DNA from: a bacterium
GTDB lineage: Bacteria > Electryoneota > JAOADG01
Assembly: GCA_963681965.1 (NCBI GenBank)
Contig: OY820579.1
Span: 3,776,001 to 3,840,000, forward strand
Length of the DNA stretch: 64,000 bases
Reading direction: 5' to 3'
Numbering within the stretch: the stretch's first letter is position 1; each line of letters opens with the position of its first letter. A program made the translations under genes and the position numbers. The notes under the pieces are model-generated. The model saw only the letters and a program-made list of their open reading frames with translations. It did not search any database and had not been told where the DNA came from. Below, in pieces: positions 54,571 through 61,926 of this stretch.

Positions 54571-57246
54571 TTACTTCATGAAGATTACTTTTTCGGTCTT
54601 GACAGTATGACCGGCAGTCATCTTGATAAAGTACACGCCACTCGCCAATCGGTTCGGACGCCAGGTAATACGCTGCTCGCCGGCATTGAACACGTTGTCG
54701 ACCAACGTGCCAACTTCCTTACCGGTGATGTCGTATGCCTTGATCGTTACGCGATCGCGCAACGGAATGGCAAATCGAATCGTGGTGTACGGATTGAACG
54801 GATTCGGATATGCCGGCTTCAACTGATAGGTCGAAACGACACTCTTCGTCGGATTTTCATTCACACCGGCAACGATATTGTAAGTCTGCCAAGTGATATC
54901 GCTCACCGTAGGATCGCGTTGAATCGAAATCCGGAACTTCACGTTAGTAGCATTCAAGTACGATTCATCCCAACGCCACATCATCGTATCGTTGGTAATC
55001 GGCGCTGTATTGATCAGCGACCACTGACCATTCGGATAATTGCGCATGACTTCGATCCGGACGGTGTCGGTCGTACGAATATCGCCATTGGTAGTGGTGT
55101 CGATATAATCCCACTGCAACGTGACGGGATTCGTCAAATATGAATTGGAAGGAAAGACCAATCGAATCGTTGCCAACGATAAATCGCGCGGTGCGTCGTC
55201 GGAAGAAATAATGTCGCTGACATTCGTATTGGCAAGCAGCGTAATCCGGAACCGGACACGCAGCAAGTTGTATTCTTCTTCGAATGCCCACGAGTAAGTC
55301 GTGTCGCTCGCCAATGGCGTGTCGATCAATTCCCACTCGCCGTCGGGATAATCGCGATTCAATTCGAGTTTGACATGGCAAGTATCGGCAATACGACGAT
55401 ACAACCAATTGAAGGTGATCGGGTTATTCAAGTACAAGCCGCCGGCAGGACCGGTAAAGCGCAAAATCGGCGCATTCGGGTCGAACCGATAACTGCAACG
55501 TAACGGCGGATAGTCCGGATACGTCAACGTGGCGGTGCTGTGAATGGCACTGCGTGCCACCGACGTCACGTATACTTGATTTTGCGTCCAGTCGTTCGCA
55601 AGCGGCGAACCGGTCTGCTGACCGTCGATCCATGCCGAACCACCGGAACGATCGTCGATGTACATAATGTAAAGCGAGTCGTTGTCGACCACTTCCGGCA
55701 TTGACGGCCAGATGCGGCTGTGCGCCGAACCGGATGCCGCACCGGCGTTATTCGTCGTGTCGGTAACCGGAGTCGGTTCATACCAGGTGGCACCGTTGTC
55801 GACCGAGTGCGTGACCCAGATATTCGCGCAAGCGTAACCGTTGGCGCTGGTGTCGACTTCGGAATCCTTGTTGCCGTACTGCGAATAGGCACAATACAAT
55901 TCGTTGTTGGTCGCAACCGAAATGCTCATGCGGTCGATCGTCGTGCGATATTCCTGACGCCAGCGTGGCGGCGTACGTCCATCGTATACAATCGGCCACC
56001 ACCAACCGTCGGCGACGATCGAGAAAGTATCGGGAGCGGCACTTGACCAGTGATACATATAAGTCGGCATAAATTCGACGCGCCATACCGGCGGAACGCG
56101 CGGTCGGACAGTCGTGTCGGTGGACAAGTCTTCCAGGAACCGGTTGACGGTGAAGACGATGTGCAAGTTGTCGTTGTTGTCGTAAACCATTGCAGTCGCA
56201 TTGAAGAAGCGGAACGTATCGCCTGCTGCCCAAAGCGTGTCAAGGTTTTCCGACTGCGTGAAGCGATCCCAGTTCCAGACGCGGAATTTCGTGATATTGT
56301 TGTGCAGCGTATCGTCGAAGTTCCATGACGCGCCGCCATCGGTCGACTGCGCAGCCCACAAGTCGTTGTTGTAATCGCTCACGAGGAAGCCGCTCCAGCC
56401 GTGCAAATCTTCGTAACCGCCGGGAATGGCGGTTTGCGGCCATGCGACTGCAACTTTATTGGAAATGCGCGAAGTCGCCATCGCATACGACGGCATGAAG
56501 CAACGGAATGCATAGGAGAATGCGGACGGATTCGATTGATTGGCATCGGTACGGCTGTAATAAATACGGGCGTATTCAATATTTCTGCCACCGTCTTTGT
56601 TGCGTGCGAACATGTGTCCGACATTATTGCGATCCATCGCAACGCTCGGCCAGTTGATCGAGTCGTTGGGAAGTGTCGCGGGATTCGGAATAATTTGAGT
56701 TCGGAAACCGGAAATCTGGTAGTCTTCGTCGACTGCGATCAGCGACATGAATCCGGGAGGGTTGCCGGTCGGTTCGTGTGCACCGATCACGGCGCGACCG
56801 TCGGTCAGTATTTCCTGCTGGCTGAAGCCGGCACCGGCTGCGACTGCAGAACCGGGGATCGACCATGCGCCGTTCGGCGGTTCGCGGAAGTTGTAAGAGA
56901 CCACGCGGTCGGTCGAGCTATTCGGCGTGCGGTGGTTCATCCACGATGTGTGAAGACCGCCCATCGTGTCGCGTTGGATCAGACGGTTGTGGGAACCGTA
57001 TGAGAAAAAGTCGGTATAAGTAGTACCAATTTGCACCGTCGAGTTGACTTCGTCGACTGACCGTACCGGACCAACGGGTGCCGGAGGCAGTGGATGATTC
57101 AACGGAACCGGCGCTGGATCCTGTAATAGTTGGCGCGACATCGACGGAGTACGGGGATCGCTGAGATGCTGTTTCCGTACGCCGAACGCTACTGCAACCA
57201 ATCCCAACACCAACAGCACTAACACTATCTTAGCTGGTATTTTCAT
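54571..57246 (-). CDS. Secreted Asp-box protein with T9SS-like CTD, paralog 5 (891 aa)
   Basis: Signal peptide; RBS region nearly identical to paralog 4; same core; CTD. Confidence 0.87.
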   Translation of the reverse strand: MKIPAKIVLVLLVLGLVAVAFGVRKQHLSDPRTPSMSRQLLQDPAPVPLNHPLPPAPVGPVRSVDEVNSTVQIGTTYTDFFSYGSHNRLIQRDTMGGLHTSWMNHRTPNSSTDRVVSYNFREPPNGAWSIPGSAVAAGAGFSQQEILTDGRAVIGAHEPTGNPPGFMSLIAVDEDYQISGFRTQIIPNPATLPNDSINWPSVAMDRNNVGHMFARNKDGGRNIEYARIYYSRTDANQSNPSAFSYAFRCFMPSYAMATSRISNKVAVAWPQTAIPGGYEDLHGWSGFLVSDYNNDLWAAQSTDGGASWNFDDTLHNNITKFRVWNWDRFTQSENLDTLWAAGDTFRFFNATAMVYDNNDNLHIVFTVNRFLEDLSTDTTVRPRVPPVWRVEFMPTYMYHWSSAAPDTFSIVADGWWWPIVYDGRTPPRWRQEYRTTIDRMSISVATNNELYCAYSQYGNKDSEVDTSANGYACANIWVTHSVDNGATWYEPTPVTDTTNNAGAASGSAHSRIWPSMPEVVDNDSLYIMYIDDRSGGSAWIDGQQTGSPLANDWTQNQVYVTSVARSAIHSTATLTYPDYPPLRCSYRFDPNAPILRFTGPAGGLYLNNPITFNWLYRRIADTCHVKLELNRDYPDGEWELIDTPLASDTTYSWAFEEEYNLLRVRFRITLLANTNVSDIISSDDAPRDLSLATIRLVFPSNSYLTNPVTLQWDYIDTTTNGDIRTTDTVRIEVMRNYPNGQWSLINTAPITNDTMMWRWDESYLNATNVKFRISIQRDPTVSDITWQTYNIVAGVNENPTKSVVSTYQLKPAYPNPFNPYTTIRFAIPLRDRVTIKAYDITGKEVGTLVDNVFNAGEQRITWRPNRLASGVYFIKMTAGHTVKTEKVIFMK

Positions 57247-57661: not shown

Positions 57662-57892
57662 ATGCAAGGATTTTCTTATCGATTCGAAGTTACCAATCGA
57701 AAACTACTCACCCGTGATTTTGATACAACAACTCCTTGGATAAATCCAATCGACTCTATCACTCTTGCCCGCGTTAATGAAGCCTCTCAAGAACTCAACC
57801 TACCCGAATCCGAGATTCGCGCTCGCTACGAAGCGATCGCCGAGAAAATTCCGATCAAATTGGCGTGGAAACCGGAAACTTGGAATCGATAG
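57662..57892 (+). CDS. Hypothetical protein (76 aa)
   Basis: ATG-started ORF convergent with the MetE-like gene; TATAAT upstream; weak RBS. Confidence 0.45.
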   Translation: MQGFSYRFEVTNRKLLTRDFDTTTPWINPIDSITLARVNEASQELNLPESEIRARYEAIAEKIPIKLAWKPETWNR

Positions 57893-57898
57893 CGAAAA

Positions 57899-59080
57899 TT
57901 ATTTGGAATATTTATTGCGCAGAATCTTCGCCGCTTCTACTATCTGGCGGAGCTTTGCTGTGGCGGTGGCATCGTCGTTGACACAGCGATTGGAGAAGGT
58001 CCCGAAACCGCAATCGGGATTGAGGAAAATCTTTTCCGGTGGGAAAAATTCCAGCGCGCGTTCGACGCGCTGCACGATCGTAGCGACCGGCTCGATATCG
58101 TAGCCGCGCGGATTCACTACGCCCAGCCCCAATTCGCGACCGCGTAATTCCTGAGCGACTGCCGACAATTCACCCGCCCGCGGCGTGGCAAATTCCAGCA
58201 CAAATTGATCGACATTCATCCGCGCCAGTGCCGGTGCAAGCGGTGCATAATCGCCCGTGAGCAACACCTCGTCGCAACGACTCCAGTTGCCACGGCAAAT
58301 ATGAATCCCCGTACGAATCCCGCTCACCCCGTGTACCACACGGTTGATCAGTTCGACAGCGTAGTCGAGTTCCGCACCCGCGTCCCGGCGGGTCGCCAAC
58401 GTCGCTCACATGAAAGTGCGGCGATCCTTCTCCTTCGAGAGGATGACTTCCGTCAATACCGGTTCGTCGAATTGCACCATCGCACAACCGGCATCGCGCA
58501 GCTCCGTCAATTCGTCGTGCAACATCGCTACGATGTCGTCCGCCATGTCGGTTTTGTCGCGATACGCCGATTTCGAATAAGCGGTCACCCACATCGAGCG
58601 CGTCAACAGATACGGTCCGGGCAATGTCGCCTTCACCGGTAAATCGGTGAGACTCGCAACATACTCGAATTCGCGCACCGCCAACGGTTCGCGCCGCGAC
58701 AGCTTACCGGTACAGGTCGGATTCCGAATCGCCGACGCCGGTACATCCAGCGTCGCCAACATCTCTTCGAATCCGGCTTTGTCCTCGACGGTATCGAGCA
58801 TATCCGCCAGCGACATCAACGCCGCGCCATCCACCCGCTCGGTCAGGAACGAATAGAAATTGTCGCGATGATGTTCGCCATCGACCACCAAATCGACGCC
58901 GGCATCTTCCTGAATCCGAATTGTCCGCGCAATTTCTTCACGCGCAATCTGCTCGAATTCCGGAGTCGCCAGTTTCCCGACGCGACGATCGCGCAACGCG
59001 CGCAACATCTTCTCGGACCGGATCCACGAACCGACTTGTGTCACTGGAAATAGCGGTAGTTTGCGTGTTGCCGTCTTCAT
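57899..59080 (-). CDS. Cobalamin-independent methionine synthase II (MetE C-terminal-like) family protein with in-frame UGA at codon 225 (predicted selenocysteine)
   Basis: ORFs 58406..59080 and 57899..58399 share one frame (RTFM-TGA-ATLATRR). The joined 393-aa protein has VGSW, DGE, LPGP, QFDEP, HICRGNW, VLEF, NPDCGF. Confidence 0.8.
58374..58408 (-). promoter_or_regulatory. SECIS-like hairpin after the in-frame UGA
   Basis: UGA-GCGACGUUG-GC(G)ACCCGC-CGGGAC-GCGGGUGC; apical loop begins 18 nt after UGA with G at loop position 2. Confidence 0.65.
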
Positions 59081-59823
59081 ACCACCACCATCTTCGTTGT
59101 GAGTTCAGTTGCTTTCGCGAGCGTCGTTGCCAATGGTGAGCGCCGCAGTGTATCGTCCCACGCTCCGCGTAAAATTTTCTCGTCCGCGAAACTGGTGACG
59201 TAACACTTCAACTCGATTGCCGCGAACGACGGATCGCCGTCCTCGCTGCCAAGATGCGCCATGACATTGTGCAGTCGTCCGTTGACCGTGATTTCGACAT
59301 CGTCGACTTCCAACTGTCGTCGCGAACAGGCACCGAAGTAACCCGTTGCCAAATCGCCTGCAAGTGCTGACAGTAGGTATTCCACCGCCGACGGATGCGC
59401 ATCGCGTTCTTCGAAACTGGCGGCTTGACCGATGTCGAGCGCGAAGTTGCGAAAGTACGCGCTGCTCTTCTGTCCGCCGGTTGATCGTACCCGTACGCGC
59501 CATTCATAGGCTTTCGCACGTTCGCGATCGGCTGCCAGTTGACACGCTTCCTCCGCGGCGATTTTCGCACCGCGTCGCACGAAGTAACGCATGGTCCGTT
59601 CACCCGGAAGACTTCCAAGGAACTCGTGACCGACCATCCGGCACCACGGCGGTAAATCGTCAGCCACCGTCGATTCGCTGCTGCGCATTTCGAGGATGCC
59701 GTCCACCGGTACGCGAAGCATCGCTTCCCGGATCAACAGCACCAGTCCCGAACCGCAGTCGAGGTCGCCGCCATCGAACAGGTGATCGGCGTTCAAAGTA
59801 CGGAGTGTCGATTCATCCAGCAT
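59077..59823 (-). CDS. TusA/SirA-like sulfur carrier fused to an OsmC-like domain
   Basis: N-terminal 'FDGGDLDCG...DDLPPWCRMVGH'; C-terminal 'PSAVEYLLSALAG...VEITVNG...RSPLATTL'. Confidence 0.82.
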   Translation of the reverse strand: MLDESTLRTLNADHLFDGGDLDCGSGLVLLIREAMLRVPVDGILEMRSSESTVADDLPPWCRMVGHEFLGSLPGERTMRYFVRRGAKIAAEEACQLAADRERAKAYEWRVRVRSTGGQKSSAYFRNFALDIGQAASFEERDAHPSAVEYLLSALAGDLATGYFGACSRRQLEVDDVEITVNGRLHNVMAHLGSEDGDPSFAAIELKCYVTSFADEKILRGAWDDTLRRSPLATTLAKATELTTKMVVV

Positions 59824-59829
59824 GATGTA

Positions 59830-60195
59830 TTAGTAGCACACGCAGGGCGAACCGTTCGACAGCCATTCGACCAATGCCGCGCCGCCAGCCGGTTGCGCGC
59901 CTGCGATCAGCATATCGTCGGTGATGTTCCGCTTCTTCATACACGGTGTGCAGACATAAATCTTGCCGCCGCCGTTGACGAATTTTTCGATCAATTCGTT
60001 CAAGGGCAGGAACGGAGCACCGGCATTCACTTTCGCCGCTTCCCCTTTGGCAGCTGCCCAGACGCCATCGGCACTCAAAAACACCATCGTGTCTTTTTCG
60101 CTGCCGAGAGCCGCATTCGCAACCACAAAACCGAGGGTTGCCTTGTCTTCGTTGTCGTGGGTATGGGTAATACTCACACAGAAGGTCTTGCTCAT
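59830..60195 (-). CDS. DsrE family protein
   Basis: VFLSADGV, GGKIYVCTPCMKKR, AGGAALVE; ATG 60195 overlaps upstream TGA. Confidence 0.88.
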   Translation of the reverse strand: MSKTFCVSITHTHDNEDKATLGFVVANAALGSEKDTMVFLSADGVWAAAKGEAAKVNAGAPFLPLNELIEKFVNGGGKIYVCTPCMKKRNITDDMLIAGAQPAGGAALVEWLSNGSPCVCY

Positions 60196-60443
60196 TCGTT
60201 GTCTCCTGATTCGGATTTCTTTTGAATCAAATAGAATGGGTGTTGCTTGATCAGTAGTGCGTTGCCCGTCGACCAGCACCACGCCGGAATATCGATGCCG
60301 GCTCCGCTGTCGAGTGCGCGTACGCATACTTTCGGCGAACCGGACAGCGTCTTGAAATACGCCAGCAGGTCGCAGATCAGCGTGCTGCAACTCTTGTCGC
60401 CGCCGTCATAGGTAACGTCGTATTGCCAATCGTCGGGGTACAT
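60192..60443 (-). CDS. TusA/SirA-like small sulfur carrier
   Basis: 'YDGGDKSC...DIPAWCWSTGNAL', 83 aa from ATG 60443. Confidence 0.78.
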   Translation of the reverse strand: MYPDDWQYDVTYDGGDKSCSTLICDLLAYFKTLSGSPKVCVRALDSGAGIDIPAWCWSTGNALLIKQHPFYLIQKKSESGDNE

Positions 60444-60834: not shown

Positions 60835-61926
60835 TTACGACAATCCGAGCACACGCCCGATTTTCCGGAAGCTGACGAATTTGAAGACCCACTGGATCTT
60901 CGCAAATATGCTCCCCTTCATTGTTAGAAAGCGGATGCCCATCAACAGCACCAGAATCACCGTCAACACGAGTCGCACCAAGCCGTTGTGCGACACCGTG
61001 AAGCGCTCGTAATCGAATTTCTTCGGATGACTCACCGGCGGCAATTTGGGATCGCGGAATTTGACCCATGCCGGCAATTTGATTTCCGACTTGTCGTACA
61101 CATTCGGCAGCGGAACGGCGAAATTGAAAAAATTCTGGAATAATTTTTCTTCGTCGATTTTCGGATTGATCTTGCTCGATTGGTCTTTCCAGATCACCAC
61201 CATCAGGTCGGCGCAATCCGGTTCGTATGGTTTGCGCTCCGCCAATTTCGGAATCAGTTTTGCCGCTTCGTCGCGGGAGATCTGCGTTTCATCCATCATG
61301 CCGACGATCTTGCTGGCATTGAGTGTCTCGACATTGCTGCCGAAAATGGCGCGGAAATCGTCGGGATGAAAATAAGTGCGTTCGGCATGACTCTTGTCGA
61401 GATCGCGCAACGACATGCGGCACCAGCGCTCGGTGGTGTAGGGGCTGCATTCCAGCGTCGTGATCACCACCGCCTTGCGGGCGACGCGATATGCTTCCAT
61501 CAGACCTTGTACCGGATCGAACAGGTGCTCGATCACTTCGCTCAAAATCACGATGTCGATACTGTTGTCTTCGAAGGGGAGTCCGTGAATGTCGGCGGGT
61601 AGTGCCGGAATGGAAAACAGCTCGTTGCAGCGCGTGCACGCGTTGTCGGACAATTCGGTCATGATTGAATCGATGCCGAGGAATTTCTTTGCCAGTGCCG
61701 CGATATACCCTTCGCCACCGCCGATATCGACCAGCGTCGAACCATTGATCCGGTTCAACTGCTGGAGAATCGCATAAGCGATCGTCATCCGCATGGTGTG
61801 GTTGCGTTCGGACGGTTGGACACCGAAGCCGTAGATCGGGCGATGCGCCTCATAGCGACCTTCGGCGACACCGCGGTCGTAGCGTTCGTCGAGCCATTTT
61901 TTGGTAACGGTGGTGTATTCGTTCAC
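60835..61926 (-). CDS. Class I SAM-dependent methyltransferase with C-terminal TM segment
   Basis: VDIGGGEG, ADIHGLPF, SEVIEHL, EAYRVA. Confidence 0.85.
   Translation of the reverse strand: MNEYTTVTKKWLDERYDRGVAEGRYEAHRPIYGFGVQPSERNHTMRMTIAYAILQQLNRINGSTLVDIGGGEGYIAALAKKFLGIDSIMTELSDNACTRCNELFSIPALPADIHGLPFEDNSIDIVILSEVIEHLFDPVQGLMEAYRVARKAVVITTLECSPYTTERWCRMSLRDLDKSHAERTYFHPDDFRAIFGSNVETLNASKIVGMMDETQISRDEAAKLIPKLAERKPYEPDCADLMVVIWKDQSSKINPKIDEEKLFQNFFNFAVPLPNVYDKSEIKLPAWVKFRDPKLPPVSHPKKFDYERFTVSHNGLVRLVLTVILVLLMGIRFLTMKGSIFAKIQWVFKFVSFRKIGRVLGLS

Follow-up and report, generated by a model that had tools for sequence, protein, structure and literature searches.

Cobalamin-independent methionine synthases are the closest described relatives of the gene reported here. 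In MetE, represented by the enzymes of T. maritima (1t7l/1xdj) and N. crassa (4ztx), a C-terminal barrel carries a zinc site of His, Cys, Glu and Cys, homocysteine-binding Ser, Glu and Asp residues, and the pterin-contacting Trp539 and Glu583, whereas MesA to MesD, as described by Price et al. (2021, PMC7857596), are single barrels of about 340-390 residues in which the zinc and homocysteine residues are conserved. Established selenoprotein genes, such as E. coli fdhF, have a UGA at a Cys position followed just downstream, inside the coding sequence (CDS), by a small-loop hairpin with an early loop G, and they depend on selA, selB, selC and selD. The gene studied here lies in a 64,000-nucleotide stretch of a bacterial genome (phylum Electryoneota; contig OY820579.1, positions 3,776,001 to 3,840,000), hereafter the window, and resembles both kinds of system: it encodes a MetE-like protein, and its apparent stop codon 225 is, on comparative grounds, almost certainly read as selenocysteine (Sec). 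It differs from known selenoproteins in the protein family itself. We consider it highly probable that UGA 225 specifies Sec and that the locus encodes one intact 393-residue zinc enzyme with a single barrel of the MetE fold. Three features, the last of them a bacterial Sec insertion sequence (SECIS) element, make up the locus:

57899..59080, minus strand: MetE-like gene, very probably a selenoprotein gene; single (beta/alpha)8 barrel, catalytic domain of cobalamin-independent methionine synthase (PF01717, AlphaFold2, Foldseek)
58406..58408, minus strand: UGA codon 225, almost certainly read as Sec (aligned with Cys in 119/120 homologs; TGA recurrent)
58376..58393, minus strand: bacterial SECIS hairpin, 6-bp stem ACCCGC/GCGGGU with a 6-nt loop CGGGAC, 12 nt after the UGA

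The gene comprises 393 codons with one internal stop, the TGA at 58408-58406 (...RTFM-U-ATLA...), and standard open reading frame (ORF) calling divides it into pieces of 224 and 166 codons. A reading made earlier from the letters of the window alone (the sequence-only reading) had joined these two 'split' ORFs into one frame broken solely by the TGA, and the frame check agrees. That both halves are intact was also borne out, since they are 70-74% and 62-70% identical to those of two TGA-bearing relatives, and the zinc-ligand motifs HICRG (H260, C262) and NPDCGF (C357) do lie 3' of codon 225. In runs X4 and X5 the contigs match the gene perfectly on either side of window positions 58211-58421, a segment that includes the TGA and the hairpin, and break there into unrelated loose ends; these breaks may represent strain variation or assembly breaks, and the two runs are uninformative on the TGA.

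The evidence for Sec begins with the residue that replaces it elsewhere. In 119 of the 120 full-length homologs that the protein database supplied (57-64% identity), column 225 holds Cys, the remaining homolog having a gap, and the surrounding RTFMCA motif is invariant, so that the Cys which the sequence-only reading had expected in homologs (RTFMC) proved real. The exception, protein P0006 (377 aa), has the gap at RTFMC and continues with the peptide TLATRRDAGS of the Sec forms, and therefore it is probably, as judged from this peptide, a Sec form that the gene caller handled oddly. Gene callers systematically cut Sec-form MetE-like genes in two, and the searched protein database yielded only Cys forms at full length. 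Over the 214 family members, position 225 is Sec in 75, Cys in 138 and a gap in one.

The TGA itself recurs. A six-frame search of 60 relatives found it at codon 225 in two of them, a congener at 72% identity and a member of a different genus of the same family at 67%, whereas five genomes of the sister family have Cys there and the 'stops' flagged in them are terminal. Scanning species-representative genomes gave 13 loci, every one with TGA at this codon, under record titles that name Anaerolineae, Acidobacteriota, a 'proteobacterium', Verrucomicrobiales, Myxococcales, Gemmatimonadota and Desulfoprunum, i.e., at least seven phyla. Together with the genome under study and its two relatives, TGA thus occupies codon 225 in 16/16 genome copies, which share 59-72% protein identity. 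In metagenomes, codon 225 is TGA in 66, TGC in 13 and TGT in one of 80 loci; these are the best 80 of 539 confirmed matches to a Sec-form alignment used as seed, and the set is for that reason biased to the Sec-form clade. The proposed search for other genomes with a TGA followed by a hairpin thus succeeded in the two relatives, in all 13 representative genomes and in 66 of the 80 metagenome loci.

The hairpin was found where it had been proposed, 12 nt past the codon. Its 5' arm ACCCGC (58393-58388), loop CGGGAC (58387-58382) and 3' arm GCGGGU (58381-58376) fold with -9.8 kcal/mol, and a possible lower stem would lengthen it to 58370-58399. The published model of bacterial SECIS elements (bSECIS; PMC13188914) asks for an apical loop of 3-9 nt, an upper stem of 4-16 bp, a G as the first or second loop base with G or U after it, 16-37 nt between UGA and loop, and a minimum free energy (MFE) at or below -7.5 kcal/mol. 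The hairpin satisfies all of these constraints (loop 6 nt, stem 6 bp, spacing 18 nt, -9.8 kcal/mol), and the earlier description of it as a bacterial SECIS-like element agrees with every one of them. The loop consensus is CGKGAY, with G at position 2 followed by G or U in 77/77 distinct TGA-bearing sequences, the set on which the stem pairing was also counted.

Conservation of the hairpin goes beyond what the protein appears to demand. Among 143 columns of conserved, four- or six-fold degenerate codons in the 16 genome copies, codons 230, 231, 234 and 235, which form the stem, are the sole columns with less than 0.6 bits of codon entropy (mean of the 143 columns, 1.58 bits), and the four codons immediately 5' of the stem vary freely. 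Across the 77 sequences 94.6% of stem cells are paired, and the figure falls to 29-49% when the partner is slid by 1-3 columns. The 5-bp G-C core of the stem is kept in all of them except L047 and L048, whose different sequence folds as a longer hairpin at the same place, and L113 encodes a different peptide with a one-codon shift and the same hairpin. Where the stem does change, pairing tends to be preserved: three changes from C-G to U.G keep it by wobble, eight from G-C to G.U keep it at the cost of an Ala-to-Val replacement, and two are double changes from C-G to U-A (L086, L113), one of which also costs a Gly-to-Ser replacement. At the hairpin, Sec forms always read RRDAG or RRDVG, and position 234 needs GCG or GUG, whereas 107/120 Cys forms have Pro at position 234. 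These patterns indicate that the hairpin is selected at the RNA level and that the Cys forms are free of the constraint.

The genome, a single contig of 4.24 Mb that is 99.9% complete, has the means to insert Sec, as the proposed check of its sel machinery established: a tRNA-Sec with anticodon TCA scores 63.8 bits (gathering score 47), and selA (481 bits), selB (364 bits) and selD (337 bits) are each above the curated cut-off. The selD gene, which lies outside the window (G000:C1:4177383-4178309, locus L018), encodes a selenoprotein itself (...FSDCAG-U-AAKIG...), and its UGA is followed by a hairpin at a spacing similar to that in the MetE-like gene; in the position of the UGA, the early loop G and the dependence on selA to selD, the MetE-like gene is like this selD and like E. 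coli fdhF. Among the 15 other Sec-form genomes, selA is above cut-off in 14, while in the fifteenth a fragment at the end of a contig is all that is present. TGA terminates the gene just upstream of the MetE-like gene (overlap ATGA), and since it is still a stop in the same operon, TGA is not globally reassigned. In the mechanism that we propose, the hairpin inside the CDS would recruit SelB carrying Sec-tRNA(Sec), and the product would be one 393-residue protein and not two fragments. The claim of the sequence-only reading that the UGA encodes Sec is thereby supported, and none of the four contrary results it had named was obtained (no sel machinery in the genome, a non-Cys aligned residue, reads with TGC, TGT or TGG, no other genome with TGA at the site).

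Several observations weigh against reading UGA 225 as Sec, or at least lend it less than might be expected. The folding energy is no better than that of shuffled sequences (z = -0.16 over 66 nt; z = -1.75 over the 18 nt of the hairpin itself, as well as which 16/200 shuffles fold), and because the energy is unremarkable in a G+C-rich gene, the case for the hairpin rests on comparison. Strict covariation is thin, with only two cells in which both sides changed, and 57/500 shuffles reach this count of pairs changed on both sides; with so little variation in the stem, these statistics have little force. In 21/77 sequences the outer A-U pair does not form, and a scan of 19 loci at gathering thresholds found no Rfam family at the operons. 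Contigs of sequencing runs from two studies span the whole gene with 0 differences, so that codon 225 is not TGC, TGT or TGG in them and the proposed read check, made here on assembled contigs, comes out with TGA kept, but either of these perfectly matching sources may be the assembly's own. Finally, five Cys-form relatives carry selA too, and the presence of selA therefore does not discriminate between Sec and Cys forms, although it does supply what a Sec form requires.

With the UGA read through, the product matches PF01717 over residues 11-385 (E 7.5e-39). An AlphaFold2 model built from 59 sequences reached a pLDDT of 86.9 and a pTM of 0.90, and its best Foldseek matches are MetE C-terminal barrels, with 4ztx first (E 8.8e-24, query TM-score 0.73), followed by the single-barrel 3rpd (E 1.2e-21) and 1ypx. 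The active-site residues were mapped through the alignment with MetE that a PDB profile search gave for the family (E 4.6e-34), with roles as assigned by Pejchal and Ludwig (PMC539065) and by Price et al. (PMC7857596). Two features of the active site are needed in what follows:

58010..58303, minus strand: span of the four zinc-ligand codons (H260 58303-58301, C262 58297-58295, E296 58195-58193, C357 58012-58010)
58712..58714, minus strand: Cys123, a second family-specific cysteine, aligned to the hairpin that caps the MetE active site (PPII segment, T. maritima MetE)

The four zinc ligands align to those of MetE and are conserved in 214/214 members; among the homocysteine binders S18 is kept in 212/214 and E69 and D205 in 214/214; and W164 and E211, the equivalents of the pterin-contacting Trp539 and Glu583 of MetE, are kept in 212-214 of 214 and in 213/214 sequences, respectively. 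Since H260, C262, E296 and C357 are all retained, the residue at 225 is indeed additional to the canonical ligands, as had been supposed. It sits on the active-site face, within an inserted segment of about 13 residues that follows the DEP loop and has no counterpart in canonical MetE. Cys123 is Cys in 208/214 members. The sister-family Cys forms (L025-L029; genomes G018, G048, G042, G022 and G038) have Val at this position, yet keep Cys225 and the whole carrier cassette described below.

The protein thus has the fold of the MetE C-terminal barrel and keeps its zinc, homocysteine and Trp/Glu residues, and differs from MetE in several respects: it is one barrel, which aligns only to residues 432-765 of 4ztx and has no N-terminal folate-tail domain; identity is 23-24%; the insertion with Cys/Sec225 and the extra Cys123 are additions; a DNF replaces the DMV motif; and genes for cysteine-pair carriers are linked to it. 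In its single barrel it is like MesA to MesD, but it is no closer to the MesD structure 3rpd (20% identity) than to MetE, and the passages of PMC7857596 available to us describe neither a Sec nor an equivalent extra Cys for MesD. A search for MesX (PF08908, DUF1852), the partner of MesD, gave no match in the 99.91%-complete genome, the same search having matched 0/14 control genomes. No NCBIfam methionine-synthase model reaches its cut-off on the protein (NF003317, 185.3 against 406 bits; TIGR01371, 127 against 930). The genome encodes a full-length MetH (1064 bits) and has no other PF01717 gene.

The MetE-like gene closes a tight run of four genes on the minus strand, and the other three encode putative carriers with cysteine pairs, which are counted here by targeted tblastn over 58 loci with at least 1500 nt upstream:

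60192..60443, minus strand: small TusA-like gene of 83 codons, first of the cassette, with a conserved Cys pair; upstream in 35/58 loci
59830..60195, minus strand: DsrE-family gene with a conserved CxxC (PF02635, E 7.3e-16); upstream in 43/58 loci
59077..59823, minus strand: TusA-like/OsmC-like fusion gene (OsmC PF02566, E 1.2e-8), ending in a TGA that overlaps the start codon of the MetE-like gene (ATGA)

The fusion is the most constant of these neighbours, being upstream in 47/58 loci and directly adjoining the MetE-like gene. In the small TusA-like protein C19 is conserved in 51/51 and C56 in 53/54 hits, in the DsrE-family protein C82 and C85 are both Cys in 57/57 hits, and in the fusion Cys23 and Cys61 are invariant and the OsmC domain is without an invariant Cys. 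The TusA motif is CPxP. The proteins here differ from TusA in having CGSG or CSTL motifs (DCGSG, SCSTL), the fusion scores below the TusA family cut-off (NF001423, 24.5 against 78 bits), and Pfam gives nothing for the small protein at E 0.01. The neighbours share their folds with the TusA/DsrE relay and with DsrE- and OsmC-like selenoproteins, both of these folds having Sec-containing members in the 2026 inventory, but the neighbours here are Cys forms, and no in-frame TGA was found in the three carrier genes.

Around this cassette the scans for control elements gave little. No riboswitch was found upstream of the operons in the Rfam scan of the 19 loci, and a promoter and terminator scan did not exceed expectation (4 promoter-like sites, 2.3 expected). 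The only Rfam hits among those loci, a tandem pair of cobalamin riboswitch aptamers (113 and 123 bits), lie at L090:4723-5210, just downstream of a Sec-form MetE-like gene, and presumably act on the gene that follows. In the window, a gene for a SAM-dependent methyltransferase (60835-61926, minus strand; Methyltransf_11, E 2.4e-13) lies on the strand of the cassette and some 390 nt upstream of it; as a candidate conserved neighbour it was rejected, with one weak hit in 101 loci. On the other side of the cassette are a small convergent ORF of 76 codons (57662-57892, plus strand; Pfam wHTH-HSP90_Na-assoc, E 2.3e-6) and a large ORF of 891 codons (54571-57246, minus strand), the C-terminal tail of which may be a type IX secretion sorting domain. 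Elsewhere in the family, a PhnD-like protein without an obvious signal peptide is encoded beside the enzyme (L041:3138-3950, L122:987-2983, L103:4269-5117 and 14 more loci).

What the residue at 225 might do is suggested by its place in the model and by its genetic company. The odds that Sec225 is a second catalytic centre, nucleophilic or redox-active, seem to us about even. In such a scheme it would act on a zinc-bound substrate of the homocysteine type or on its reaction partner, and it could be recycled by Se-S/S-S exchange with the upstream carriers (TusA-like, DsrE CxxC, TusA-OsmC). More specifically, and as a tentative proposal that we hold to be somewhat doubtful, the protein may be a two-centre zinc and selenium enzyme that catalyses a reaction new for the MetE fold through a covalent Se-S or Se-C intermediate between Sec225 and the zinc-bound substrate, with a dedicated three-protein dithiol relay regenerating Sec225; examples would be a reductive step, or sulfur or selenium transfer, on homocysteine, methionine or a close analogue. 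These mechanistic ideas face difficulties of their own. About a fifth of the loci are without the carriers, and 17 have a PhnD-like (PF12974) gene beside the enzyme instead, a neighbourhood that belongs mostly to a Cys-only clade, includes five Sec forms and in 9/17 cases also has an acyl-CoA-dehydrogenase-like gene. The Sec loop is the weakest part of the model (pLDDT 55-62 for residues 211-230). An obligatory intramolecular pair of residues 123 and 225 is, from the alignment, unlikely, because the five sister-family proteins have Val in place of Cys123 and still retain Cys225 together with the carriers.

Among the competing explanations the one that fares best concerns this function and leaves the Sec codon in place. 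The protein could be an ordinary folate- and B12-independent 'core' methionine synthase in which Cys/Sec225 merely protects or regulates the zinc site. All zinc and homocysteine residues by which Price et al. (PMC7857596) recognise methionine synthases are present and the fold matches MetE, MesD (3rpd) and 1ypx, but we regard this as unlikely on balance, given that the genome already has a full-length MetH, that the best NCBIfam model stays at 185 against 406 bits, and that residue 225 is Cys or Sec in 213/214 members, with the costly Sec in most of one clade. The linkage to three cysteine-pair proteins also speaks against it, as we know of no methionine synthase with such neighbours. Less plausible again is a role of Sec225 as a ligand, either as an extra or alternative zinc ligand or as part of a selenium, arsenic or mercury site for alkylation or dealkylation. 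Such a role would suit the position of the loop, which follows E211 on the active-site face, and several of the selenoproteins newly listed in Table 1 of PMC13188914 bind metals or are organometallic enzymes; we nevertheless judge it improbable, because none of the four canonical zinc ligands varies, Glu296 included, which leaves no free ligand position in the resting state, and because no metal-resistance genes recur beside the gene in the neighbourhood loci examined.

The remaining explanations deny the Sec codon itself. Insertion of Trp, Cys or Gly at the UGA, through an altered code or a suppressor tRNA, has precedent in bacteria that reassign UGA, and Cys would fit the alignment; it is very improbable here, where TGA ends the gene immediately upstream in the operon, where a dedicated tRNA-Sec, selA, selB and selD are at hand, and where such decoding would not need a conserved hairpin. 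Termination at the UGA with a separate start of the second half, i.e., a naturally split enzyme, is scarcely credible. A TTG stands directly after the stop at 58399, two codons on, and split MetE proteins are known in some archaea according to PMC7857596; in other Sec-form loci the distance from the TGA to the next possible start ranges from 4 to about 140 nt, so that there is no conserved restart, the break would fall inside one barrel exactly at the invariant Cys, and the hairpin is conserved at the RNA level. A gene broken by a recent nonsense mutation or by a sequencing or assembly error, for which one base from TGY to TGA and the called pieces of 224 and 166 codons could be adduced and which the sequence-only reading had still allowed, has next to no probability, being contradicted by the recurrence of TGA in all 16 diverged genome copies and 66 metagenome loci, by the conservation of both halves and by the identical contigs of the two studies.

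With Sec at codon 225 as the preferred reading, the family can be placed in an evolutionary frame. A quick maximum-likelihood tree of 52 rows, left from the 214 once any row with 80% or more identity to a retained row had been dropped, splits into a Cys-only clade (9 rows) and a clade of 31 Sec and 12 Cys forms, and at least three changes between Sec and Cys are needed on it; the tree is unrooted, and the columns around residue 225 were retained, which could slightly pull the Sec forms together.

The family seems to be new as a selenoprotein. No MetE-like or PF01717 entry is among the 119 prokaryotic selenoprotein families and subfamilies of the May 2026 inventory (Table 1 of PMC13188914), in agreement with the sequence-only reading, which had not counted MetE-like proteins among the well-known selenoprotein families. 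Literature searches, together with term searches in PMC9312934, PMC12013277, PMC13326102, bioRxiv 10.1101/2022.07.06.499078, PMC8318568, PMC9402790 and PMC10418091 and passages of PMC7005905, likewise turned up no MetE-like selenoprotein, although the supplementary lists of deep-Sep (PMC12013277) and BSepDB (PMC13326102) could contain the family. With at least seven phyla named in record titles and many metagenome loci, the gene would add a widespread family to the prokaryotic selenoproteome.

Sec is usually the catalytic residue of the protein that contains it, and it therefore singles out residue 225 as the key to an uncharacterised branch of the methionine-synthase superfamily, a branch that keeps an intact homocysteine and zinc site and yet travels with cysteine-pair carrier proteins. 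Given the position of Sec225 and the identity of these carriers, the chemistry of the enzyme is directly testable. If the two-centre zinc and selenium enzyme that we tentatively propose is real, it would represent a branch of sulfur amino-acid metabolism that depends on neither folate nor B12 and is distributed over many phyla.

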